A stretch of DNA of 64,000 bases, taken from IMG/VR virus record IMGVR_UViG_3300044844_000428. One strand, written 5' to 3'. The notes under the pieces are model-generated. The model did not search any database and was not told the DNA's origin. It saw only the letters and a list, made by a program, of their open reading frames with translations. The DNA comes from a virus. Shown piece after piece: positions 12,960-45,579 of this stretch. The position numbers and the translations under genes were made by a program. Numbering within the stretch: the stretch's first letter is position 1; each line of letters starts with the position of its first letter.

Positions 12960-12988
12960 ATTATATCATACAAATAACGAATTGTAAA
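12960..12988 (-). promoter_or_regulatory. Early-type promoter TTTACA-N17-TATAAT
   Basis: Direct reading. Confidence 0.75.
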
Positions 12989-12990
12989 CA

Positions 12991-18983: not shown

Positions 18984-19049
18984 AATTTAATTCCTCATCA
19001 ATGTTATTTAATATGAGTCTATTATACTATATCATTGTTGCAAAGTAAA
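18981..19049 (-). promoter_or_regulatory. Early promoter + leader + RBS cassette, copy B
   Basis: TTTACT-N17-TATAAT; matches copy A. Confidence 0.85.
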
Positions 19050-19058
19050 CATTTATTT

Positions 19059-22773: not shown

Positions 22774-23316
22774 TCATACTAATTCTCCGTATAATGAATC
22801 AAGAGTAGAAGTGCTTAATAATTTCTCTTTTAATACTTTATCTTTTTTTAATACTTCTGGCTGTTCAACATTAGAAAATTGTTGTAAGAATTCTCTGTAA
22901 GAATTCACAAATTCTACGTCGTCATCATGCCCCTGCAGATCTAAGACTTTATTTCCAACAGATTGTATAATTTTGTGTTTAAGAAGAAATTGATGTTTTT
23001 CTTTTGCAATTCTTCTAAGATAAGCAAAATAGACTATTTGAGTAAAGTATGCAAATGGATTAGAATATTTTTCGTGATCGAATTTATCAAAGTATAGTAT
23101 GCAGTTTTCAATAGCATCAGAAATCATTTCGTCTTTGAATGAATAACCATTAAAATTGCCTTTTGCTGCTAATTTTGAGGCGATTAGTAAGATACATTCA
23201 CCAAGGTATTCAGTAATGACTGGTTTAGGAAGACCCTGTTCCTCTGATAATTTTAATAGTTGTTTTCTTTCTACAATAGCTTCATAGAAGGCTTTGTTGT
23301 CTATATAATCTGCCAT
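22774..23316 (-). CDS. 55: Late-transcription sigma factor gp55
   Basis: YIDNK.F, NF.GYSF.DEMISDAIENC, NPFAYFTQI..AYLRRI.KEK; start at 23316 because promoter lies at 23347-23375. Confidence 0.96.
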   Translation of the reverse strand: MADYIDNKAFYEAIVERKQLLKLSEEQGLPKPVITEYLGECILLIASKLAAKGNFNGYSFKDEMISDAIENCILYFDKFDHEKYSNPFAYFTQIVYFAYLRRIAKEKHQFLLKHKIIQSVGNKVLDLQGHDDDVEFVNSYREFLQQFSNVEQPEVLKKDKVLKEKLLSTSTLDSLYGELV

Positions 23317-23346
23317 GATATAACTCCAATTAGTTTTGTATTCTTT

Positions 23347-23375
23347 ATTATATAATGCAAACACACATTTGTAAA
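23347..23375 (-). promoter_or_regulatory. Early promoter TTTACA-N17-TATAAT for 55
   Basis: Direct reading. Confidence 0.8.
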
Positions 23376-23602
23376 CATTATGATTTTCGTAAGATAGTCA
23401 GAACCGTGTGTTTTTCATGAAATTACTAGTAATAGAATCATTGACTTAGGGACTAGTTTTTCATGATTTTCTTGAAGATGATGGAATATATGTCTTATTT
23501 TTAAAAAAGCTTGTCTGGTTGACCCGTTCTGAATAAATCCATTACATATCATTAACTTATATTAAAGTTACCATTTTCATTAAAAATAATTATTTCATAA
23601 TG

Positions 23603-23631
23603 TTTACTTTTGACCAGAAGTGATGTATAAT
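23603..23631 (+). promoter_or_regulatory. Early-type promoter TTTACT-N17-TATAAT (extended TG -10) facing antisense into uvsW
   Basis: Direct reading; no + strand gene follows. Confidence 0.6.
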
Positions 23632-23658: not shown

Positions 23659-25143
23659 TTAAAGATTAATATTAATAATTTTCATATCAAATTCTTCATT
23701 TGTATAAGTCTTAATTCTTTCTGCTAAATGACCTAAAGTATGATTAGATTTTGATTTATAAGAAAAGTTATCAGCAATGTCATACAGATTACAACTATTC
23801 TTTCCTTCTTTTAATCTTAGTCCTCTACCAATGGATTGTAAATTTCTAATTTTTGATTTTGAAGGACTAGAGAAGATAATATTTTCTATTGATGGCATAT
23901 TTACACCAGTAGACATTGTTCCAAAACTTGCAAGAATAATAGCATTAGATTCTTTTTCAGCAGTATGTCTTATTAGTTCTCTTTCTTCTGTAGCAGTTTC
24001 ACCACTTATATAATAAACTTTTCTATTGTTGTCTATTTTTTCATTAATCATTTTTTGTAATACTTTTCCGTGTTTCTCAACAAATTGGAAAAGTATTAGA
24101 GTATTTCCTGACTGTTGTAATGCTAAATTGACTATGAATTTATTACGTTTTTCATTTGAAATAATATAGTCCATTTCTGCTTGGTATTTAGCAGAGCACA
24201 TAATCTTTCTAATTTCTTCAGGGTATTTTAACAACAAACATTTTATAGAAAGATTGACTACTCGGTTTGAATCCATTAATTCTTTAGTAGTAATTACTCG
24301 GTGAACTGGACCAAGTATTCCTTCTAATTGAAGTTGTGAAATTTGTGTATTGTCTATTGTACCAGTAGTTCCAATTCTATACTTTACATCTGTCATTTTT
24401 TCAAACATTGAAGTTTGACTTGTAGCCTTTGCTAAATGTGCTTCATCTGAAATTACTACGTCAAATTGATTACACCATTCTTTGGACAATTTAAATGTTG
24501 ATTGCCATGTTGTTAATAGTACGTTTTTTTTGAAATCCTTAGACAGCCCTGAATATAATTTTTGACAGTTGTTCTCAGTTGACCAACCATTATGAGAAGA
24601 ATAATCCACAAAATCTGAGTATAATTGTTCTACTAATGACGTATTAGGAACGATTATTAGACACTTTAAATTCTTTGCAGTGAACCATCTTATTAGAGTG
24701 TAAATGATTGCTGATTTTCCACTTGAAGTAGGGCTTATTAGTAATGTTCTGCATTCATTCAATGCCTTATGTATTGCATTGAATTGATAATCGCGTAATT
24801 CTATTGGCTTATTCTTTGAATGAAGTTTCAATAATTTAGCAAAATCTTCTACATGATTTAGCTTTATTCCATTGTCGTAAGTAATTCCGTCATCAATTTG
24901 TAATTCATAATCATTTCTTTCTGCAAATTCTTTTACATAATTTATTAGTCCAGCATATAGGGTTTTTGTTTGAGTATTATAAAGTCTGCAATATCCATCC
25001 CATATTTTGGCTTTAAATTTGGGCATGTACTTTGCTCCAGGAACCGCAAATTTAAAAAACTCTGAAAGTTCCTGTTCAACTCCTCTGTCAGAGAATATTC
25101 TAATAAAGGCTTCATTGTATTTTTCGACTTTAATAATTGTCAT
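23659..25143 (-). CDS. uvsW: SF2 helicase UvsW
   Basis: PTSSGKS, DEAH, GTTGT, STGVN, LQSIGRGLR. Confidence 0.96.
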   Translation of the reverse strand: MTIIKVEKYNEAFIRIFSDRGVEQELSEFFKFAVPGAKYMPKFKAKIWDGYCRLYNTQTKTLYAGLINYVKEFAERNDYELQIDDGITYDNGIKLNHVEDFAKLLKLHSKNKPIELRDYQFNAIHKALNECRTLLISPTSSGKSAIIYTLIRWFTAKNLKCLIIVPNTSLVEQLYSDFVDYSSHNGWSTENNCQKLYSGLSKDFKKNVLLTTWQSTFKLSKEWCNQFDVVISDEAHLAKATSQTSMFEKMTDVKYRIGTTGTIDNTQISQLQLEGILGPVHRVITTKELMDSNRVVNLSIKCLLLKYPEEIRKIMCSAKYQAEMDYIISNEKRNKFIVNLALQQSGNTLILFQFVEKHGKVLQKMINEKIDNNRKVYYISGETATEERELIRHTAEKESNAIILASFGTMSTGVNMPSIENIIFSSPSKSKIRNLQSIGRGLRLKEGKNSCNLYDIADNFSYKSKSNHTLGHLAERIKTYTNEEFDMKIININL

Positions 25144-34590: not shown

Positions 34591-36495
34591 TTATGCACCA
34601 ACAGTTGAGAACTCAACGCTTTGACGAGTAGCGATGAAGTTTAATGTGATGTAATTGATTGAGTAGTTTGGTTTGATGTATATATCAGCAACAAAGTTAT
34701 AACTTTCAATTACAGCAGCTGTATTGTTAGTCGTGTCACAAACCACTTGGAAATCAGTAATACCACGTCTTCCTTGAATATCTCTCAAGAATGGTTCAAG
34801 CATATTTTTGAACTGTGCTCTTGTGAAAGAATCATTGTATTCAAACAATTGGTATTTTGCCGCAACTGAAATAGATCTTTCAAGAATGATGAACAATCTA
34901 CGAGTTCCAATACGGTCAAAAGCAGATGGTTTAGCTAATAGAGTTTTGTCGCCGTATAACACAACACCTTGACCAGGGAAAGAAACCACTGGGTTAATGC
35001 CGTTGCTATAAATTGCATCTCTAGCACTTTTATCTGGATTGTAAGCTAATTTAACTACATTTTTAACTTGACCGCGTGTATAACCACCAGGAGAGAACCA
35101 AGGATCATTTGTGCCATCTGTACGAGCACATAATCCAGCAGTGTCACCATTTAATGGAATCCAACGGTAAACGTCATTATATCTGTCATACTGATATTTA
35201 TAACCAGAATCAAGAACAGCATAAGAAGATGATGGAAGTGCATCACGATATGCTGAAACTTTAGCAGTAATATCGGAACCATTACCGATTAAAATATCGC
35301 CAGTAGTATCTTCTGGAGAAGCAAATACGATAATATCTTTACGAACTTCAGCAATGTTGCTAATTAATGAAGTAACAGTTGCAGATGATGCTTTACCAGC
35401 AGCAATGTAAGCAATAGGATATAATTCTGGGTTAGCAATTAAATTGTATGCTTCTAATTGATTTGCTGAAGTTGATGTTAAGTCACTAACACCACCAGTC
35501 AATTGGTAGGTAGCATAAGCAGTAAGATTAGTATAAACTGTAGCACTAGTTAATGTAGTATCCCAATCTGTTGCTAATTTAGAAGTCCACCAAACGTAGT
35601 TAGATTGGTTATTCAATACGTTTTTATAGTAACTGCTTGTTCCGTTATCGGTTTTAGCATTAGCTGCTTTAGAAACAAATGGGAATTTTTCAAGAATCGT
35701 TCCAGGAACGCCAGTCCATTCACCTTTAGAATCAATAATAAGAATATGCAATTCATCAGAGGCAGTAGTAGCACCTTTTTGTGTAGCAAAAGATGAAGTG
35801 CCAGGAGCAGTAGAGAATTGACTTACGTATTGCCAATCAGCTTTAATAGCACCGTTTGTTAATGCAATAGTAGCATTAGCAGAAAGAGTAGCTACGCTAT
35901 CAGAAGTAATTGAAGCAACTGTACCAACAGTAGCACCAGTTGAATCTTTTACAACAGCGCCAACATATAATTCAGTTAAGAATTTAGTTTGAGCCGCACC
36001 TGAAGTTCCACCAGTTAAGGTAGTAGCAGATGTTAAAGTAGTAACAGTACCTGAAAGAGTAACTGCTTTAAATGTAGCAGCATCAGCAACAGCAATTGCA
36101 ATAGAATTACCTAATGCGCCAGGATATTTTGCTGTAAATTTAATTGTGCCTGTACCAGCAATGAAATTTTGTTCGTATACTGTTCTGTTATTGATGGTAG
36201 AAGCAGTGCCTGAAGAAACCGCATTTCTTTGAGCAGTAGTTCCAGTACGAATGTTTAATAAGTTACTAGAATAAGATAAGAAGTTTGCTGCAGTAAACCA
36301 TGATTGAGCATTGGTGTCAGTTGGTTTACCAAATTGAGCAACAAGTTCGTTTTCTGATGAGATAGTAGTAGGTTCTAATACAGGACCCCATGAATAAGCA
36401 CCAGCAACTGCGGCTGCAGAAGATGCTATTGTAGGTACAACATTAGTAAAATCCTTCTCTACAACTGCAACACCAGGAGATAATTGGATTGGCAT
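34591..36495 (-). CDS. 18: Tail sheath protein gp18
   Basis: SPGV.V.E.D, WFSP.G..RG, GDKT...PSAFDRI..RRLF; late promoter 36574-36581. Confidence 0.97.
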   Translation of the reverse strand: MPIQLSPGVAVVEKDFTNVVPTIASSAAAVAGAYSWGPVLEPTTISSENELVAQFGKPTDTNAQSWFTAANFLSYSSNLLNIRTGTTAQRNAVSSGTASTINNRTVYEQNFIAGTGTIKFTAKYPGALGNSIAIAVADAATFKAVTLSGTVTTLTSATTLTGGTSGAAQTKFLTELYVGAVVKDSTGATVGTVASITSDSVATLSANATIALTNGAIKADWQYVSQFSTAPGTSSFATQKGATTASDELHILIIDSKGEWTGVPGTILEKFPFVSKAANAKTDNGTSSYYKNVLNNQSNYVWWTSKLATDWDTTLTSATVYTNLTAYATYQLTGGVSDLTSTSANQLEAYNLIANPELYPIAYIAAGKASSATVTSLISNIAEVRKDIIVFASPEDTTGDILIGNGSDITAKVSAYRDALPSSSYAVLDSGYKYQYDRYNDVYRWIPLNGDTAGLCARTDGTNDPWFSPGGYTRGQVKNVVKLAYNPDKSARDAIYSNGINPVVSFPGQGVVLYGDKTLLAKPSAFDRIGTRRLFIILERSISVAAKYQLFEYNDSFTRAQFKNMLEPFLRDIQGRRGITDFQVVCDTTNNTAAVIESYNFVADIYIKPNYSINYITLNFIATRQSVEFSTVGA

Positions 36496-36585
36496 GTGTG
36501 TCTCCGTTAGGAATAAGGTTAAAATTATCTATTATAAATTTGTAGATCACATTGTAAAAGTTGGTTCTGTATTTATTTATACTAA

Positions 36586-38277
36586 TCAGAAATTCATCAT
36601 GATTTCTTTATCTGATTCATTCCCATCATTCAACCAACCAGTAGGCACCATCTGTTCATCTATAAGTTTCATTCTATCTTCATAGATTGACTTTCTCATA
36701 TCAATGTTATTAAGTGCAGTAAAATATGGATCTGTAGTTAACCATGCAAAAAGGACCAATGTCATGACAAGATCATCGTGATATCCATCATCGGCTGCAT
36801 AAGAACCTTTCGATTCGATAAACGTCGAGAATTCTGCAATGATATCAGCATCATATACTAATAGTTTATTTTCTTCTATTAGTGTTTTAAGATTATTACA
36901 ACCTATTCTCTTTATTTTCTTATCAGTATTGACACCTAATCTTGATTGCCCACCAAAGCCACCGGAAATACATTGACCTTTGGAATTTCTTCCAACTGAT
37001 AGTATATTTTCATATTCAAGATCTGCATGGAGAATATAACTAACTTGTTCAGAACTATTTATCTCCATAAGTACAAATGCTTCATTATAGTCATTAGCAA
37101 TTTTATAGATGACATTTGGATATAGAAGTGGACTTATGTTATTATCTCTATATTTTGCCACAACTTTATATGGAAGTTGGGTAACATCTATAACTGTAAA
37201 TGCTGAATAGTCACCACCAACACCTTTTGATGTATCCACAACCATAACATAACTATGGAATTGTATTGGATATTCAATAATGTCTAATCCATTATTGGAG
37301 TGTATATAAGAAATAGGTCTCATTTTGGACATTACATCACTACCAATAAGTGTATAAGATGAACCCAGAAAGTGCATCAAAACTTCTTGGTTGTACTTAA
37401 TTTCACCTAAAAGTTGTTTCTGTTTGGCTGCCCATACTTCATTATGTAAAGGATGTTCCCAGTATTCAACTCGTTTATGAATAAATCCATTTATATTTCG
37501 TTCTGCTTCATCCCACATCTTCCAAAAATGGTTGAAACCAATTGGTGTTGATGTTATAATAACCTTTGAAGATTCACCAGATGAGATTGTAGGATAAGTT
37601 GAAGCAAAGAATTCTTCAGCTACTGTGCCAGGTACGCTGGACAGTTCATCAAGATATAATAGGTTAACTGACTTTCCCCTAATTCCAGACGCAGTCGTGG
37701 CAGCAATAAATGCTTTGCTTTTGTTCTCTAGAGCTACTGAACCTTTATTCCATTCGACAACACCCTGTTGAAGCCATATTGGAAGTTCTTCATACATAAG
37801 TTGAAACCGTGCCATAACTTCACGAGCAGCAGCAACTTTGTTACCCAACATAGCTACATTTTTACTTTCATTGAATACACAATACCAGACAAGATAAGCG
37901 GCAACCGTGGTTGTATTATGAGATAGAATGTCATTAGTATAGAATGTATGTTTATCGGAATCTATAGATAAGTCATACATATTTTCAGAATATCCCAAAT
38001 TATCTAATCGGATGACTTTAGAGTTTCCTAACTTAGTTCTTATATGACAACCTAATGAATTCTTGGCAAATATTTCGTTATAATCGGAATCGATGAGAAT
38101 GTGTGTATCTGCGCATTTAAGACGTAATCCAGTATCTAATATTATTTCATATACTTCATATTCTATAGTTTTATTGGATGATAGTATATCAACAAAACCA
38201 TCTTCAGTTTCAACTTCCCAATCCGAAACATTGATGGATTCTACGAATTTTCTAGTTACATTATCAGAAAGACTCAT
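36586..38277 (-). CDS. 17: Split-intein C fragment (121 aa) fused to C-terminal part of large terminase gp17
   Basis: LKCADTH block B, MYDL block F, ILSHN|T junction; then TTTVAAY, IRGKS.NLLYLDE, STP.G.NHF, HDDLVM. Confidence 0.95.
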   Translation of the reverse strand: MSLSDNVTRKFVESINVSDWEVETEDGFVDILSSNKTIEYEVYEIILDTGLRLKCADTHILIDSDYNEIFAKNSLGCHIRTKLGNSKVIRLDNLGYSENMYDLSIDSDKHTFYTNDILSHNTTTVAAYLVWYCVFNESKNVAMLGNKVAAAREVMARFQLMYEELPIWLQQGVVEWNKGSVALENKSKAFIAATTASGIRGKSVNLLYLDELSSVPGTVAEEFFASTYPTISSGESSKVIITSTPIGFNHFWKMWDEAERNINGFIHKRVEYWEHPLHNEVWAAKQKQLLGEIKYNQEVLMHFLGSSYTLIGSDVMSKMRPISYIHSNNGLDIIEYPIQFHSYVMVVDTSKGVGGDYSAFTVIDVTQLPYKVVAKYRDNNISPLLYPNVIYKIANDYNEAFVLMEINSSEQVSYILHADLEYENILSVGRNSKGQCISGGFGGQSRLGVNTDKKIKRIGCNNLKTLIEENKLLVYDADIIAEFSTFIESKGSYAADDGYHDDLVMTLVLFAWLTTDPYFTALNNIDMRKSIYEDRMKLIDEQMVPTGWLNDGNESDKEIMMNF

Positions 38278-39341
38278 CTTTTATAGGTTTCCTTAAAAAG
38301 ATTCTCACAGTACTCTTTAGATGAAAGATTATTATATTTTGCCATAAGATTAGAAATATCAGATTCTTCAATAACTTCTGTCCAACCAAAACTACCATAA
38401 TCATTTTTGCGTATAGTGTCTTTGTAATCAAATTTTAATATTTGTTCTATGTAAAAAGCGTGCTTAATAGAATCAACTGCTTCAAATAATAAAACTTTGT
38501 ATTTCGACAGATATTCTTTATGATATCTATGATATATTGTCGGTTTTGAGGTTATTCCAATCTTATATTTATTTTCAGAAATCTGAATGATATAAAAACT
38601 GCCAGGATCAGTAAGATCTTTATTCCATAAAGATTTAAAATTTATCTTTGTAGATTTACTTCTATTTATAGATTCAATCTCATCTGGTGATTTACTCAAT
38701 AGTGTCTTTTGCCAATTCAACTGTCTTTCAGTCCAGATTTCCCGACCTCTGTTTTTGCCATGTTTAGCAATACATATTTCCAAACTAAAAGTTCTCTGTC
38801 TATCTGACAAGGAAGTATTTGCTTCTTCAACAGTCATACCTCGAGAAGTGTAATATTCTATCTTAGTGTTATCATTATTGTTTATATTCTTAGTGACAAC
38901 CCCCTTTTTCTTAGTGTTAGTTATTCTTTCTAACATCTCATTCTCGGGGAGTTCATTATATTTTATAAATTTCTCACTAAAAGGCGATAATTTTCCTCCA
39001 TGATTATGCCAGGGATTATTATCGCCTTTCATCTTATCTATTGCCTTTTGACTGTGAACTGGACCATATTTTGTTATATACTCGCCAGGAGTCATATCAT
39101 GGGACAATGGATGAGTGCCAAGATTATATGATCTGAATCCACATAATGCGCATTCACTATAATTATAGGGATCAGAACCATCAGGATATTTTAGTAAAGA
39201 TTTCTTGGCTTTCATCGCGCGATAATTTCTTGTTTGATATTTTGATTTGCAATTATCTGAACAGAATTTTGCATTATGATGGCGTGGTATAAATACATCA
39301 TCACATTCTTTGCATTTTATGGAATTCTTCAGCAGTGACAT
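38274..39341 (-). mobile_element. Free-standing endonuclease between split-intein halves (Zn ribbons + C-terminal GIY-YIG/T5orf172-like domain)
   Basis: CKEC..FCS..C, CALC..H, FYIIQ...YKIGIT...R...E. Confidence 0.72.
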
Positions 39342-39654
39342 TTAAGGTTTCTCCAGTTTTTTTATTTCGTACCTTATATATCGTTTCTTTGCCGACACAC
39401 TTCCCATGCTGTCTCGGAAACATCCCAATTGATCTAGAATTGTTATGAATGGTATTGATAAAATCTATTTGGTAATCAAATAGTTCAAATGGAACTAATC
39501 CATAATCAAGAGTAATGATTTTTATGTAAGTTCTTATGAAATATATGGGGTCGGATTTGCATTTTACATATTCTTGGACTTGGTATTCCGTATAATCGAC
39601 AGAAACACCAATAGATTTTAGGTTTGGATTTGAATTGTATGTCAAAGAAGCCAT
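39301..39654 (-). CDS. 17: N-terminal part of large terminase gp17 (85 aa) fused to 32-aa split-intein N fragment
   Basis: NPNLK, DPIYF..YIKI, LFDYQ, PRQHGK|CVGKET. Confidence 0.95.
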   Translation of the reverse strand: MASLTYNSNPNLKSIGVSVDYTEYQVQEYVKCKSDPIYFIRTYIKIITLDYGLVPFELFDYQIDFINTIHNNSRSIGMFPRQHGKCVGKETIYKVRNKKTGETLNVTAEEFHKMQRM

Positions 39655-39662
39655 AATTAGTG

Positions 39663-39691
39663 TTTACTTTTTCGTATAAATAAGATATAAT
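39663..39691 (+). promoter_or_regulatory. Nested early (TTTACT-N17-TATAAT) and late (TATAAATA 39675-39682) promoters facing the non-coding locus
   Basis: Both consensus motifs exact. Confidence 0.8.
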
Positions 39692-39697
39692 TATCAC

Positions 39698-39985
39698 ATA
39701 GCCTATATAATTACTGGACAATGGGACACCAGTTGCATGAGCAGGAACCTACCCCTGCCAGATGAGGATCGGGAATTTTCCTGTACCCTGTAGTAGCCAA
39801 TCTACAAATACGTCTGCCGTTATAGCAAAACTTGCAATGCAGACATGGACGATAAAGTTCAATATTATTCGCAGGTCGGATGTTTCTTTATCAGAATTCC
39901 AGTTTTTGCATCGGACCTACACGGCGCAGTTTATATAAACCATCAATGTAGGGCTGGAAAAATACCAAATAATCTAGTAGTCAAG
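39698..39985 (+). ncRNA. Candidate ~290-nt multi-stem, pseudoknotted non-coding RNA
   Basis: At least 7 stems, two long-range pairings, G-U pairs only on + strand, elevated GC, no ORF. Confidence 0.65.
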
Positions 39986-40102
39986 TGGTTGCGAACGCAG
40001 TGAGCAATCCACCATTCGTGAACGCAGTGAGCGAATTAAAAGGTCAATATTAGTATTAATCTGTTCAACCATTCACTGCGTTCATGGTTGCGAGCAAGCT
40101 CG
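39985..40102. repeat. Three hairpins sharing the 11-mer GAACGCAGTGA (two direct, one inverted)
   Basis: 39993-40003, 40020-40030, reverse complement 40073-40083, each closed by a different stem. Confidence 0.9.
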
Positions 40103-40112
40103 TGTATCAACA

Positions 40113-40838
40113 TTAGAATCCAGTTGGTGTATTATTTGACCATGTATCTATTATAAAAGTATCAGGTACATTAGATTTAACAAAATAATCCAATGGTTGA
40201 TTTGGTAAAGTAACATTGGCTTTCTTGATAACACCAGATGAAGTAATGGATCCAAATATATTTACTTTCATGGTAAAGTTAAATGTATAAATTATTTCCC
40301 GTCTTGATTGAAAATCACCATCATAAGAATCCTGGAAACTTACATTATTCAAGATGATTGGTACATCGTTTACTATATTCAAGTCTGGAATAGCATTAAT
40401 CGATAGTGTATAATCTGGTGTAAAGACTGGCAAGATTTGTTCAACTACTGCTAATGCATCTTCTGTTGTTTTGGTTAAAAGACTTAATTCTATATCCAGA
40501 TTGTATGGAACGGGACTGAATTGAGTTTTTAAAGTAGTTTGGTCATAACTAGCAATCTTGGTCATCTTGTTGGATTTTCTTGAGGCATCGTAAGTATAAC
40601 CAACAATTTCAAATGCCATTCTAGGAAGAATAGTATTGACGTTATTTTCCAGGTTTGGATCTTGTTCCAATCTAACTAGCCATTTTTCTTTTGGACCATA
40701 AGCAATTGGTACATTGATGGTTTGTAATACAGCACCTGCTTCATCCATTCGCTCGATCTGGATTTCTGAAAACATCCGTCCGAATGCTACAATTGCTTTC
40801 TTTATAATGCCAAAATAATATGGAGGATTGTTTAGCAT
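40113..40838 (-). CDS. 15: Tail sheath stabilizer/terminator gp15
   Basis: AFG..F..I, VPIAYGPKEKW, LPRM.FE, PVPYN, EQILP.F.P. Confidence 0.95.
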   Translation of the reverse strand: MLNNPPYYFGIIKKAIVAFGRMFSEIQIERMDEAGAVLQTINVPIAYGPKEKWLVRLEQDPNLENNVNTILPRMAFEIVGYTYDASRKSNKMTKIASYDQTTLKTQFSPVPYNLDIELSLLTKTTEDALAVVEQILPVFTPDYTLSINAIPDLNIVNDVPIILNNVSFQDSYDGDFQSRREIIYTFNFTMKVNIFGSITSSGVIKKANVTLPNQPLDYFVKSNVPDTFIIDTWSNNTPTGF

Positions 40839-41491
40839 TATAGTTCACCGAATGGATTTGTTTCTGAAAAGATAACATCAGTTGCTTTATCTATAAATTT
40901 AGAATTATCGCCATAGGATTGTTGATCGTCTGTATTAGGATTAACTGTAATGTCGAATGACTTTAATGTCTCAAATGCATCAATAGTATCATCTCCAGTA
41001 TTAATATATTCTGAAGAATACGAATATAATTCAATTTGGAGTTTGTAAACATAAAGTTTTCCAATTTGATAGAACGGATCCTGATGTTGAACAAACTTGA
41101 TTTCGAACAATCCTTTTGTTAATGGAAAGTAAATCAAATCGCCTTCACAAGGTCTATTTGGAAGAATGGTATCTTCGTATATTCCAATCAGTTGTTCCCA
41201 ACGCTTTCTAGCAATTACTAGAGTAGCAGACTGTTCAACCATAAGACCAAACTTTTGGATGAATGACCCTTGACCTTCAAAGTTATCTATGTTCTCAAAG
41301 TATGCTTCTATTGGATATTGACTATTGAATTGCGATAATCTATCCTCACCAAGTATTTCATCTTTAGCAATCAAAGTTCTTGGAATGTATCTAACATCCT
41401 GACCATAAATCTTTAAAGATTCGATGATAATATCCTCCCAAACATTCTGTTCGGAAGTAGTACCCATTGTAAAATATTTATTCCGTGGCAT
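40838..41491 (-). CDS. 14: Neck protein gp14
   Basis: IYG..V.YIPR, RP.EGDLIYFP, PFYQ.GK, NPFG. Confidence 0.95.
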   Translation of the reverse strand: MPRNKYFTMGTTSEQNVWEDIIIESLKIYGQDVRYIPRTLIAKDEILGEDRLSQFNSQYPIEAYFENIDNFEGQGSFIQKFGLMVEQSATLVIARKRWEQLIGIYEDTILPNRPCEGDLIYFPLTKGLFEIKFVQHQDPFYQIGKLYVYKLQIELYSYSSEYINTGDDTIDAFETLKSFDITVNPNTDDQQSYGDNSKFIDKATDVIFSETNPFGEL

Positions 41492-41495
41492 AGTA

Positions 41496-42458
41496 TCAGC
41501 CCATAAACCATGAGAGTGGAGCTGCTAATGTTATTAATTCATCTTCAAGATCTTTAATTTCTTGCATTGCCATATCGTACATGCCTTGACCATCAATAGA
41601 AACCCCGCCAGGTAACAACATTCCGGAAAATTTAGATAAATTCTGTCCCCATTGTCTACGAAATAAAGCAGTCACATAATGTTTCAACCATCTTTCATTC
41701 CAAACATTAGCAAATTCAGCAGGATCCAATGCTCTATAGCATTCTGCAATAACATATGTCCCTAAAGTAACATCAGTTTCCCAATTGAGGTCCAAATGTA
41801 ATCTGCCTTGGTATCTGTTGAATCTTATCGACGGTGCTCTATTCAACACAAAAGACATCAAATCAAGATAACTCATAGCAGTAGTATAGTAAATCATTGA
41901 TGTGGAAGTCAAGTCATGTAAATCATTTAATCGTAGTTGGTACTGAAGATTGAAAATAGTATTGGTCGATGTCGTACTATTGCTGATGGGTAGAATATTA
42001 GTAATACCATAAACCAAATCGGGAATCTCAATATACTTGTTATCATATACGCCAAGAACACAAGATACTATAGTTGTGTCGTATCCCGATTTTGAACCAA
42101 CAATGTGTTCACCTGGTACGAATGTGCCTTTAACCATTTTGGTCATTAGACTAGCACCAGAAGATGATTCGAAGATTTCTGTAGCAACTTCAGCGGTAGC
42201 ACCAGAAGTTAATCCAGTAACAGTTTCACCTACAGTAAAAGAAGTAGCAGTCTGTGTAGTTAATGTTATGATTGATGCTGAAATCTTGTGTTTCATATAG
42301 AGTTTTTCAACCCCATCTGGATGATACTGTCTCCAGTATTCCAATGCTTCGTCTAATCTATCTTCTAACTGGTCATCATCAACATTCACTTCAAGTACAG
42401 GGGCGCCTAATGCACGAAGGCAATATTGTTTAAGTTGTTCTCTACTATGTGTTGCCAT
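41496..42458 (-). CDS. 13: Neck protein gp13 (with inserted beta module)
   Basis: YCLR.LG.PV..VNVDD.Q, WLK.Y.TAL...QWG.NL.KF.G..LPGG. Confidence 0.95.
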   Translation of the reverse strand: MATHSREQLKQYCLRALGAPVLEVNVDDDQLEDRLDEALEYWRQYHPDGVEKLYMKHKISASIITLTTQTATSFTVGETVTGLTSGATAEVATEIFESSSGASLMTKMVKGTFVPGEHIVGSKSGYDTTIVSCVLGVYDNKYIEIPDLVYGITNILPISNSTTSTNTIFNLQYQLRLNDLHDLTSTSMIYYTTAMSYLDLMSFVLNRAPSIRFNRYQGRLHLDLNWETDVTLGTYVIAECYRALDPAEFANVWNERWLKHYVTALFRRQWGQNLSKFSGMLLPGGVSIDGQGMYDMAMQEIKDLEDELITLAAPLSWFMG

Positions 42459-42766: not shown

Positions 42767-45579
42767 GTAAATTTACCTTTTATTCTATGAGTTTCAATAA
42801 ACTGTAGTGAATCTTTATTGTTATGTACAGTAACAAATTGCAATGCTGTTTGTCCAATATGAGACTGAACAAACTGAACATTTCCAAGATGTTTGATGTA
42901 TAGTGGCTGAGTAGTTTTTACTATTGATACTGAACCTGTACCTAACACTCCAGATAATACAGTATCTCTTGTGATTGATAAACTATTTATACTGTTGGAT
43001 AATTGATTACCTGATACTGATATTTCTTTGGTAATTGATATCGAATCTAAAGTGATTGTGCTAGTAACACTGGATAGTCCAATAGTTTTATCTTTTCCAT
43101 AATCACTAGACTGGGTATTACATTGAACGCCATTAAGATCAATTAACAGTGATTTTGTGCAAGAATTTATTTGAGTACTAGAATAATTTCCGCTTATTCC
43201 AATAGTAATATTGTTCGATTCTTGACTAATACTGATATTAGATTGAACACCGGTAAGGTTTACAGTAGATGAACTTGTAATTCCAAATGTGCCAACATTA
43301 GTATTTGCTGTTACTTTTGATAATGGGTTAGATAATATTTTTACAACTGAACCGATATTACTAGAAGAAACTATATCAGTAATTGCTATCAAATAGTCGT
43401 CAGTAGTTCCAATATATCCTGCAATAGACGTACCAGCATTTCCTATTAATCCAACTGTAATGGATTTGGATACAGAACCAATATTAATACTAGTTGATAC
43501 TGATGATGGTTGTACAGATTTAATAACTAATGCTGTTCCAATAGAACCAGATGCTGATGTTCCTGTTATACCTTTTGTTCTAGTATTAGATAAGGTACCA
43601 ACATAAGAAGTAATACTAGAACCAAATAATGCATTATTAGTAAATGATGGTTCGTTTCCTATACTACCAGAAGCATAGTTTCCAGATAATGAAGTTGAAC
43701 CAGATTTAGTATAATCAAGTTGGCCAATATTAGTAGCAATTTGGTTACCAGAAGAACCTGATGATGTTACCGGTAATAAAGTTCCTGTTGATATACTAGA
43801 ACTATTACCAGATATTGCTATTACTGAACTATAAGATGGAGAATTTACTTCACCTAATAGTTGATTACCAGCAAGAGATGCTCTTCCAGTTTGTACTGCA
43901 GTTAAATTACCAACTGAAGTACTCGATGTGTTTTTAGTGACAGCAGTTGTGCTTGATACTGAAAGAGAACCAGTTTCAGTTGTACTAATAGCACTGGTCA
44001 ATCCAACGATGATATTATTAGGTTCGGTTCCTATTGATGTGGAACCAGTATTACCTGTAAGATTACTTGAACTTATAGCACTGATAGAACCAATATTAGT
44101 ATTGGACTGGATACTAGTAATCGATAGTGTGTTATAAGAAGAAACGGAATCAATATTAGTTGATGTTTGAACACCGGATGTGGATAAATCTATAGTATAA
44201 GACAGATTACCAATATCTGATGCTAATGCATTTCCACTAGTTGTTAGTATATGATTATTAGGTTCAGTACCGACTGAGGAAGAACCAGTATTACCAGCAA
44301 CATTTGTTTCTATAGAATAAACAACAGAACCAATTGAACTTATTAAACTAGTAGATAATATTTCCGAAGAAATTGTGCTAGTAAGATTACTTGTGCTGAT
44401 GGTAGAATTTAATCCACTCAAACTCAAGGTCAATTCTGTATTAGGATTATTCAATTCTGAAGTAATTGAATTTCCTGTTGTTGCTACTTCAAGATAAGAA
44501 TTTGTATTACCAACATTTGCACTAATAGAATTATTAGTTATAGGTGCAGTAGTGCTGTTAGGTTCTGTACCTAATGCAAATGTTCCTGTGTTACCTATTA
44601 CACCATAAGAACGGGCATGGTTTACTGAACCAACATCTGTAGTGCTAGTTACTGAAGTAATTTCTGACGATACTACAGAAGAAACTGAATTTAGTTGGCT
44701 TGATGCAGATACTGATGATAATCCGATAGTTATATTGGATAACGTATTACCAACATAAGATTGAATTTCATTGGCAGTTAGTAATACCGAACTGAATGTA
44801 GTTGATGAACCAACAGAAGTGCTACCTGTTACATTAGTAACTGATAGTGTAGTATTATTAGGTTCAGTTCCTATTACAAATGTTCCTATATTACCAGTTA
44901 ATGCAATGGTTGTAGCATTGGCAATAGAACCAATTGAAATCGATGAAACAACACCACTAGTTGTCAGTATATGATTATTAGGTTCTGTACCAACTGAAGA
45001 AGAACCTGTATTGCCTTGTAATGAAACTGTAGTTGATTCTAATACGGAACCCGAAGCACCAGTTCCAGATAAACCAGACAATGAGGTTGAAATATAACCA
45101 ACAACGGAATTGATACTAGAAGTGGCATAATTTCCAGATGATGTAACTGTATTGGATATTAATACTGAACCAATAGAGTTTGTTCCTTGGTTACCAATAT
45201 TTGCTGTAGTAGATGATGGTAATACTGAACCAATCGAACTAGAAGATGATGTTCCTGATATAGCAATACTGACATTAGAAACTGTTGTTCCTATACTACC
45301 AGAAGAAGTTACATTTAGAGTAGATATTGCGTGATTATTAGGTTCTGTTCCAACAGAAGTAGTTGCAGTATTACCGGTAAGACTAACGCCACCAGAAACT
45401 GTATAACCAAATGAACCTAAAGAAGAAGTGGCAGAAGTGCCTGAAGTAGATACTGAAAGATTGACGTAAGCTATTGAAGAAACGAAACCCGTACCAAGGG
45501 TAATATATCCTGGTACGGTATAATCGAGTGCTATCCAATCACTAGCATAATAAGATGAATTGTTAGATATAATAGCCAT
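42763..45579 (-). CDS. Ser/Thr/Gly-rich repetitive fibre-like virion protein
   Basis: ~21-aa periodicity, recurring GTEPNN motif. Confidence 0.7.
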   Translation of the reverse strand: MAIISNNSSYYASDWIALDYTVPGYITLGTGFVSSIAYVNLSVSTSGTSATSSLGSFGYTVSGGVSLTGNTATTSVGTEPNNHAISTLNVTSSGSIGTTVSNVSIAISGTSSSSSIGSVLPSSTTANIGNQGTNSIGSVLISNTVTSSGNYATSSINSVVGYISTSLSGLSGTGASGSVLESTTVSLQGNTGSSSVGTEPNNHILTTSGVVSSISIGSIANATTIALTGNIGTFVIGTEPNNTTLSVTNVTGSTSVGSSTTFSSVLLTANEIQSYVGNTLSNITIGLSSVSASSQLNSVSSVVSSEITSVTSTTDVGSVNHARSYGVIGNTGTFALGTEPNSTTAPITNNSISANVGNTNSYLEVATTGNSITSELNNPNTELTLSLSGLNSTISTSNLTSTISSEILSTSLISSIGSVVYSIETNVAGNTGSSSVGTEPNNHILTTSGNALASDIGNLSYTIDLSTSGVQTSTNIDSVSSYNTLSITSIQSNTNIGSISAISSSNLTGNTGSTSIGTEPNNIIVGLTSAISTTETGSLSVSSTTAVTKNTSSTSVGNLTAVQTGRASLAGNQLLGEVNSPSYSSVIAISGNSSSISTGTLLPVTSSGSSGNQIATNIGQLDYTKSGSTSLSGNYASGSIGNEPSFTNNALFGSSITSYVGTLSNTRTKGITGTSASGSIGTALVIKSVQPSSVSTSINIGSVSKSITVGLIGNAGTSIAGYIGTTDDYLIAITDIVSSSNIGSVVKILSNPLSKVTANTNVGTFGITSSSTVNLTGVQSNISISQESNNITIGISGNYSSTQINSCTKSLLIDLNGVQCNTQSSDYGKDKTIGLSSVTSTITLDSISITKEISVSGNQLSNSINSLSITRDTVLSGVLGTGSVSIVKTTQPLYIKHLGNVQFVQSHIGQTALQFVTVHNNKDSLQFIETHRIKGKFT

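Follow-up and report, generated by a model that had tools for sequence, protein, structure and literature searches.

The spacer between genes 15 and 17 of a T4-like phage, analysed here within a 64,000-nt stretch of its DNA (the window), contains at 39662 to about 39960 what we take, with somewhat more confidence than doubt, to be an independent non-coding RNA gene of about 265 nt that is read on the + strand, folds and acts in trans. At the level of sequence comparison the element is non-coding, conserved and folded, its strand can be assigned, its promoter motif belongs to a recognisable class, and it is an insertion. In the mechanism that we propose, transcription would be driven by GTTTACT-N17-TATAAT, begin near 39697 and run antisense to the surrounding late operon. 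As comparison of the relatives shows, the 5' half of the RNA forms six short hairpins (H1-H6) whose stems evolve fast yet stay paired, and the 3' half a near-invariant core (hairpin B1, a U-rich linker, and hairpins B2 and H8) that is tied to the loop of H6 by a loop-linker contact, PK1. The folded RNA would then act in trans, with a protein or other partner recognising the invariant 3' core. The original prediction had placed an undescribed, promoter-driven, pseudoknotted + strand RNA at this site, and covariation, a bias toward G-U pairs, the class of the promoter and the lack of a match in Rfam uphold that description.

The genes of the source phage lie almost all on the minus strand, and the spacer of 458 nt (39655-40112) is flanked as follows, gene 17 starting at 39654:

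41496-42458: gene 13
40838-41491: gene 14
40113-40838, minus strand: gene 15 (tail sheath stabiliser; Pfam PF16724, T4-gp15_tss, 1.1 × 10−69), the upstream neighbour of the spacer
39301-39654, minus strand: first piece of gene 17 (N-terminus of the large terminase and start of an intein), the downstream neighbour

The GC content of the spacer is 0.40-0.43, compared to about 0.30-0.33 in the flanks; the spacer holds no ORF, and many stops interrupt all three minus-strand frames. Reading frames and composition thus agree with the earlier description of a GC-enriched, non-coding spacer without a gp16 ORF. In the alignment of homologues, 1-nt indels occur inside the most conserved block of the spacer, which is therefore non-coding. 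Two small + strand proteins were considered and rejected: the ORF at 39762 has no start codon in L006, L003 and L128, and the frame of the ORF at 39845 is shifted by a 1-nt indel within near-identical DNA. The closest deposited relatives of gp15, all below 50% identity, come from Methylophilales phage Melnitz, T4-like cyanophages and Pelagibacter phage HTVC008M, in all of which a gp16 gene (127-139 aa) separates gene 15 from gene 17.

Gene 17 of the window (36586-39654) is split: its N-terminal part and the start of the intein occupy 39301-39654, the end of the intein and the remainder of the gene occupy 36586-38277, and between these two pieces, in a different frame, comes an endonuclease-like ORF of 355 aa (38274-39341), a layout that agrees with the 'fractured gene' arrangement (PMC2677866). 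The same arrangement is present in L006, and gene 17 is uninterrupted in L003, L004, L005 and L128. We also observed that the window and L090 are 95-100% identical across most of 28-38 kb, 79-90% identical in gene 15, 83-84% in the gene 17 N-terminus and 96-100% in the spacer; this mosaic of identities suggests recombination around the gene 15-17 junction.

Homologous spacers were found in four phage lineages only, as five distinct sequences. A gp15-based search of IMG/VR recovered a homologous spacer on four contigs: L004 and L005, which are 99% identical, L006 and L003. Scanning IMG/VR, JGI metagenomes and GTDB genomes by pattern contributed nothing beyond extra copies (L083-L086, L089, L090 and L106); many pattern matches in crAss-like contigs were discarded as a chance match within a coding gene. 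The fourth lineage, L128, is far more distant (~66% identical) and was found by a scan for the conserved 5'-domain motif, after which two further scans gave no additional lineage. Blastn of the spacer against 50,697 phage records detected no homologue, and a covariance model built without L128 had no match in 8 related loci that lack the spacer. Every known copy of the element lies directly upstream of gene 17, including that of L128, where the promoter is again on the opposite strand. The core at 39866-39952 is ~95% identical between the window and L006/L003; identity at fourfold sites is 57-76% for gene 15 and less for gene 17. The gene-15-proximal 160 nt (39953-40112) are confined to the window lineage, and an unrelated segment of 75 nt is found in L003 and L006.

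The structure was named from the window sequence, and its pairs were then scored in four sequences aligned with plain MAFFT: 11 of the 35 pairs of the 5' half were changed on both sides (double-changed) and 97% of the cells were paired. Not one shuffle out of 500 matched this pairing, and shifted controls yielded 0-2. A covariance model of the four sequences recovers the full-length L128 homologue (104 bits, E about 6 × 10−28). In the five-sequence alignment, which was fitted to the structure model and includes L128, a sequence unused in deriving the structure, 20 of the 35 pairs in the 5' half are double-changed and 99.4% of the cells are paired (0-2 for shifted controls). The covariation check on related 15-17 spacers that had been proposed earlier thus finds compensatory pairs well above the controls, the excess by which we recognise a structured RNA gene. 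The folding energy of the single sequence is unexceptional (z = −1.4 on the + strand and −0.7 on the minus strand). The elements of the 5' half are:

39696-39703, + strand: single-stranded 5' segment ACAUAGCC, the same in all five sequences
39713-39733, + strand: hairpin H1, ACUGG/CCAGU, with conserved loop ..GGACAC; 4 of 5 pairs double-changed, 100% of cells paired
39741-39758, + strand: hairpin H2, GCAGG/CCUGC, loop AACCUNCC; 5 of 5 pairs double-changed
39762-64/39789-91, 39766-67/39786-87 and 39770-74/39779-83, + strand: three-tier hairpin H3; 4 pairs double-changed
39793-39805, + strand: hairpin H4, GUAG/CUAC, loop CCAAU; no double changes
39812-39844, + strand: hairpin H5, GUCUGC/GCAGAC, with variable interior; 6 of 6 pairs double-changed
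39846-39861, + strand: hairpin H6, UGGAC/GUUCA; one double change, and a conserved G-U that is A-U in L128

Pairing in H4 survives the replacement of G-C by G-U and of U-A by U-G, which are pairs on the + strand only. Between the window and L004, only 4 of 458 nt differ, and two of these form the compensatory pair 39817/39839 in H5. The loop of H6, GAUAAA, is the 5' strand of PK1 (39851-39857). All of the stems listed in the original prediction exist in the window sequence, and compensatory changes in relatives back those corresponding to H1, H2, H3, the outer part of H5, and H6. Its fourth stem persists as a hairpin, although in the register GTAG/CTAC, which suits the relatives better than TGTAG/CTACA; of its fifth stem, the outer GTCTGC/GCAGAC is retained, whereas the inner GCAA/TTGC is broken or deleted in relatives.

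The 3' half consists of the following elements:

39866-39882, + strand: hairpin B1, UAUUCG-CAGGU-CGGAUG; 100% of cells paired
39883-39906, + strand: U-rich linker with the 3' strand of PK1, CUUUAUC (39886-39892), and the 5' strand of PK2, UUCC (39897-39900)
39907-13/39922-28, + strand: weak hairpin B2; 86% paired, one double change
39929-32/39937-40, + strand: hairpin H8, GUUU/AAAC; invariant
39941-39960, + strand: conserved 3' tail with the PK2 partner GGAA (39956-39959), where family-wide conservation stops
39985-40104, strand unassigned: lineage-specific module of three hairpins with head GAACGCAGUGA, then a short GC hairpin

In L128, B1 reads CACUAG-CAGGU-CUAGUG, which differs by two double changes and two changes from wobble to Watson-Crick pairs. 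PK1, predicted earlier as GAUAAAG:CUUUAUC, gains the backing of two compensatory changes, being GAUAA:UUAUC in four sequences and GAAUA:UAUUC in L128. Of the second predicted contact, UUCCAG:CUGGAA, a 4-bp core (PK2) is kept as UUCC:GGAA, as UUCC:GGAG in L003 and as CUCC:GGAG in L128, with a loose alignment register in the G/A-rich tail, and the remainder is lost. A closing helix ATTACTGG/CTAGTAGT had also been suggested; it clashes with H1, and its 3' partner is missing in the other lineages. Three lineages keep the last stem of the original list, AGGTC.GATG/CATC.GACCT, without a mismatch. In L128, 4 of its 10 positions are unpaired and it comes to +3.8 kcal/mol, and we rejected this long stem as the family-wide fold in favour of the shared B1, weaker B2 and H8. 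Because the core scarcely varies among the three lineages, it is L128 alone that informs the fold of the 3' half. In the window lineage, the computed energies (−14.5 kcal/mol for the long stem vs. −8.3 for B1 plus B2) indicate that the long stem may be a lineage-specific alternative fold.

No canonical intrinsic terminator marks the 3' end of the RNA: a search of 38500-41500 for terminator-like sites with a T-run found none, and the GC-rich 3' hairpin followed by a U run that marks an Hfq-type sRNA with intrinsic terminator is not present. The only resemblance to a terminator is B1 plus the U-rich run in L128, and B1 followed by such a run might be the end of a shorter RNA of about 195 nt. The module at 39985-40104, with a fold z-score of about −3 on both strands, may be a 3' extension or end structure of the RNA. 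Its three hairpins differ in their stems but share an 11-nt head, GAACGCAGUGA, which one of them carries on the strand opposite to that of the other two; two of the three also pair together in a 16-bp stem. The idea of a mobile repeat was rejected, since the module occurs a single time in the window and, in IMG/VR, in the window lineage only. In its place, L003 and L006 have the 75-nt segment, with a hairpin CUGACC-UGAAA-GGUCAG, which shares only the word GTGAGCGAA with the module.

On the + strand, the 60 proposed pairs in the five sequences include 36 G-U cells (11 positions) vs. 5 A-C cells (2 positions), and because G-U cells outnumber A-C cells to this extent we read the RNA on the + strand, as the original prediction had done from the wobbles of the window. 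Of three G-U pairs located mid-stem in short stems, one belongs to H6 and two to H3, where none of the five sequences departs from G-U. In 3 of the 4 sequences compared, the + strand version of the shared 5'-half structure exceeds the minus-strand one in stability by ~10 kcal/mol; for L006, in which H2 is misaligned, the advantage is only 3 kcal/mol. The conserved promoter also faces the + strand. Folded singly, the minus strand reaches a minimum free energy close to that of the + strand or a little below it, so that single-sequence energies do not separate the strands. These data bear on the reading that the functional RNA is the minus strand, a structured intercistronic leader of gene 17 that would serve as a processing site, translational operator or attenuator. 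Every neighbouring gene is on that strand, the similar folding energies would suit such a leader, Watson-Crick compensatory changes are equally valid on either strand, and the single A-C cell of H2, its closing pair in L003, becomes G-U on the minus strand. However, the 11 positions with G-U on the + strand would become A-C, including the invariant mid-stem pairs of H3 and the pair of H6, the shared structure would be weaker by ~10 kcal/mol, and the conserved + strand promoter would be left unexplained. We consider a minus-strand leader improbable.

The promoter of the + strand RNA and the other sites of its class are:

39662-39691, + strand: host sigma-70-type promoter GTTTACT-N17-TATAAT (TTTACT at 39663, TATAAT at 39686-39691)
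39675-39682, + strand: T4-type late motif TATAAATA, nested in the promoter
12960-12989, minus strand: GTTTAC-class site
19021-19050, minus strand: GTTTAC-class site
23347-23376, minus strand: GTTTAC-class site
23602-23631, + strand: GTTTAC-class site

Both the promoter and the nested late motif are located where they had been reported before. The pattern GTTTAC-N16-18-TAWAAT has 5 sites in the 64-kb window vs. 0.15 expected, and all 5 are intergenic; given this enrichment, the site at 39662 is a member of a real promoter class, and in its GTTTAC element, 18-nt interval, TATAAT element and intergenic position it belongs to the host-type (early) class of this phage. The homologue in L128 is preceded by the identical form, GTTTACT-N17-TATAAT; in L003 and L006 the promoter is TTGTTA-N17-TATACT, with TATAAATA unchanged. 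The nested motif is invariant across three lineages and absent in L128, so that a putative late-type element accompanies the promoter in three of the four lineages. Occurrences of TATAAATA in the window as a whole (16 vs. 12 expected) show no enrichment. A homologue of gp55, the gp55-type late sigma factor, is encoded at 22774-23364, and minus-strand copies of TATAAATA precede several late genes (e.g., 36574, upstream of 34591-36495). Going by the promoter motifs, the RNA may be made both early and late. We further noted that the promoter at 23602-23631 is also in antisense orientation, directed at the minus-strand gene 23659-25143 from its 3' end, and that no ORF follows it.

A promoter firing into an ORF-free region resembles T4 origin transcripts, and the transcript could accordingly be an origin or R-loop primer; the locus could also be an element acting at the DNA level (a pac site or a recombination hotspot), as its hairpins would form in single-stranded DNA too. 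The region, however, is GC-rich and stably folded rather than an AT-rich unwinding element, the strand-specific conservation of G-U pairs and the covarying tertiary contact indicate a folded RNA, and the element is missing in close relatives that still must replicate and package their DNA. We judge these origin and DNA-level readings to be very improbable, and the R-loop primer, one of the options raised originally, received no positive support.

The original prediction further placed the RNA in the slot of gene 16 and offered a stand-in for gp16 as one option, a reading that the relatives do not support. In a tree of gp17, all loci with gp16 beside gene 15 fall on one side, and the window belongs to a 16-row clade on the opposite side (support 97; 99 for the 15 rows excluding L007), throughout which gp16 is absent between genes 15 and 17. 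Members of this clade have at the junction either the RNA (the window group and L128), a 299-aa ORF (L009-L025 and L042, in a sister group) or nothing: gene 15 abuts gene 17, with gaps of ~6-82 nt and no RNA, in L007, L008 and L152-L156, and likewise in L055, L157, L158 and L165, which are outside the rows of the tree. The junction of genes 15 and 17 is a hotspot for insertions. From the clade-wide absence of gp16 and the existence of RNA-free members, it follows that gp16 was lost or relocated in the clade as a whole and that the RNA was inserted later. By this comparison of sequences, the RNA is a promoter-bearing inserted unit and no simple replacement of gp16. Like a moron, it was inserted with its own promoter, at a site where genes 15 and 17 of related phages adjoin each other; the gp17 tree does not settle the branching order within the clade and would fit a single gain of the RNA as well as two.

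Some of the other junctions have features of their own. The 299-aa ORF is rich in short repeats (L014:4766-5665; also L009-L025, L028, L030 and L042). Directly upstream of gene 15 in L007, and overlapping its start, is an ORF for a 270-aa GIY-YIG-type endonuclease (L007:8-820), in the position held by gene 14 in the window. The 82-nt 15-17 spacer of L156 (L156:2404-2485) has, on the opposite strand, AGTGTTTAC, a word of the -35 region of the window promoter, which may be a relic of the antisense promoter or its precursor.

Searches for the small terminase itself gave consistent results. Tblastn with two gp16 sequences showed no similarity in the spacer, and a profile of 39 gp16 sequences from related phages (2 × 10−70 on a control record) found nothing better than E about 1 in the spacer or the 64-kb window. 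The spacer does not contain a T4-type gp16, defined as an ORF of ~130-165 aa between genes 15 and 17 that matches PF11053 or the marine T4-like gp16 profile; a decayed or recoded gp16 was rejected as well, there being no tblastn or profile match and stops in all frames. No small terminase was recognisable by PHROGs among 30 small ORFs of the window, nor in a 117-kb record of a relative (G001, the record of L022; estimated to be 65% complete). The RNA might then be associated with packaging, either performing the small-terminase task of recognition or initiation, by analogy with phi29, or serving as an RNA cofactor of the large terminase. It adjoins gene 17, no gp16 or TerS is detectable in the window or the 117-kb record, and its loop and linker carry complementary sequences. 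Against such a role, the clade members in which gene 15 abuts gene 17 lack both gp16 in the slot and the RNA, a model of the 3' core gives no further match, whether in the rest of the window or in records from five relatives, and there is no match among 4227 Rfam families, the phi29 pRNA model presumably being one of these. Because the genomes are incomplete, a divergent TerS encoded elsewhere is the simpler reading. A packaging RNA, another option of the original prediction that found no positive support, is in our view the least probable of the readings considered here.

A cmscan of 36000-41500 on both strands with Rfam 15 (4227 families, E up to 1) gave no match; this set includes phi29 pRNA, 6S, tmRNA, group I introns, riboswitches and the Freshwater motifs. 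There is no tRNA or tmRNA in the spacer. The RNA thus belongs to no family described in Rfam 15. Conserved single-stranded GGA occurs only in the H1 loop (GGGAC) and in the junction GAGGAU, all other GGA being in stems or variable; by inspection of the alignments, the RNA thus lacks the many GGA in hairpin loops of a CsrA/RsmA sponge. The best matches to a possible trans target within the window are 12-14 nt long, with no strand bias, and fit chance or codon words.

The main rival to a trans-acting RNA gene is a + strand RNA that regulates the terminase gene in cis, because the RNA is complementary to the probable read-through route into gene 17. It would either pair with the 15-17 spacer of the late polycistronic mRNA, leading to cleavage of double-stranded RNA, or, through convergent transcription, block read-through, and by either route it would control how much gp17 is made, or when. 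In T4, some early transcripts run antisense to late genes, and cyanophage S-PM2 has an antisense RNA, CfrI. Regulation in cis would also fit the position of the RNA, always directly upstream of gene 17, with its promoter 8-37 nt from the gene 17 start codon, and the lack of a minus-strand TATAAATA in the spacer (the nearest upstream copies are at 42984 and 46345). However, overlap with the late mRNA is limited to the gene 15-gene 17 spacer: with a predicted start near 39697, the start region of gene 17 is outside the RNA, and its ribosome-binding region would be left uncovered. Moreover, close relatives without such an element express gene 17, and in L128 there is a minus-strand terminator-like site upstream of the RNA locus. 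Nor does this reading explain the ~95% identical core, the conserved G-U pairs and the covarying loop-linker contact, as complementarity in cis is automatic and requires no constraint on the primary sequence. We regard regulation in cis as possible but doubtful.

A near-invariant core together with conserved wobbles and a covarying tertiary contact argues that the RNA must fold precisely and be recognised. Pseudoknotted, covarying RNAs of such size usually bind protein, catalyse, or assemble into a complex. As judged from these patterns of conservation, the evidence points to a trans-acting RNA that would bind a protein or ligand, or to one that would self-assemble. Action in trans is inferred from the conservation pattern, and the transcription and the ends of the RNA are likewise predicted. 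To our knowledge, very few folded RNAs of this kind occur in lytic phages. The promoter and the RNA would make up a self-contained unit in the most conserved late operon, at the terminase gene, and are thus readily testable.

Several known systems resemble the element in part. Like phi29 pRNA, it is phage-encoded, has its own promoter, a covarying fold on fast-evolving sequence and complementary loops, and is adjacent to the gene of the packaging ATPase; unlike phi29 pRNA, it has no Rfam match, is found in a T4-like myovirus with a TerL motor, and is missing in close relatives. If the packaging reading were true, a packaging RNA would for the first time be known from beyond the phi29 group. 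With the T4 'anti-late' RNA and CfrI of S-PM2 it shares a host-type promoter and an orientation antisense to the T4-like late gene cluster; those RNAs overlap coding genes, whereas the spacer RNA is wholly intergenic, and unlike them it has at least 20 compensatory pairs and a near-invariant core. We know of no conserved pseudoknotted fold in T4 'anti-late' RNA or CfrI. The likeness to T4 gp16 (PF11053) is one of position only, between genes 15 and 17 as in most T4-like phages: the spacer has neither coding capacity nor residual similarity, and the slot is without gp16 across the whole clade. A T4-like clade without a recognisable small terminase in the usual place raises the question of how packaging starts. 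Similarly to ROOL, GOLLD and the ~10,000 unnamed IMG/VR candidates of PMC10690425, the element is a phage-borne covarying RNA found by comparison of intergenic regions; unlike ROOL and GOLLD, it has no homology in Rfam 15, is smaller (~265 nt) and is so far found in four lineages. Finally, the element resembles phage morons in that it bears a promoter, has a different base composition, is inserted in a conserved late operon and is present in only some relatives, although its product would be an RNA rather than a protein and it has no clear terminator. Phages could thus acquire RNA genes in the same way as protein 'morons' are acquired.
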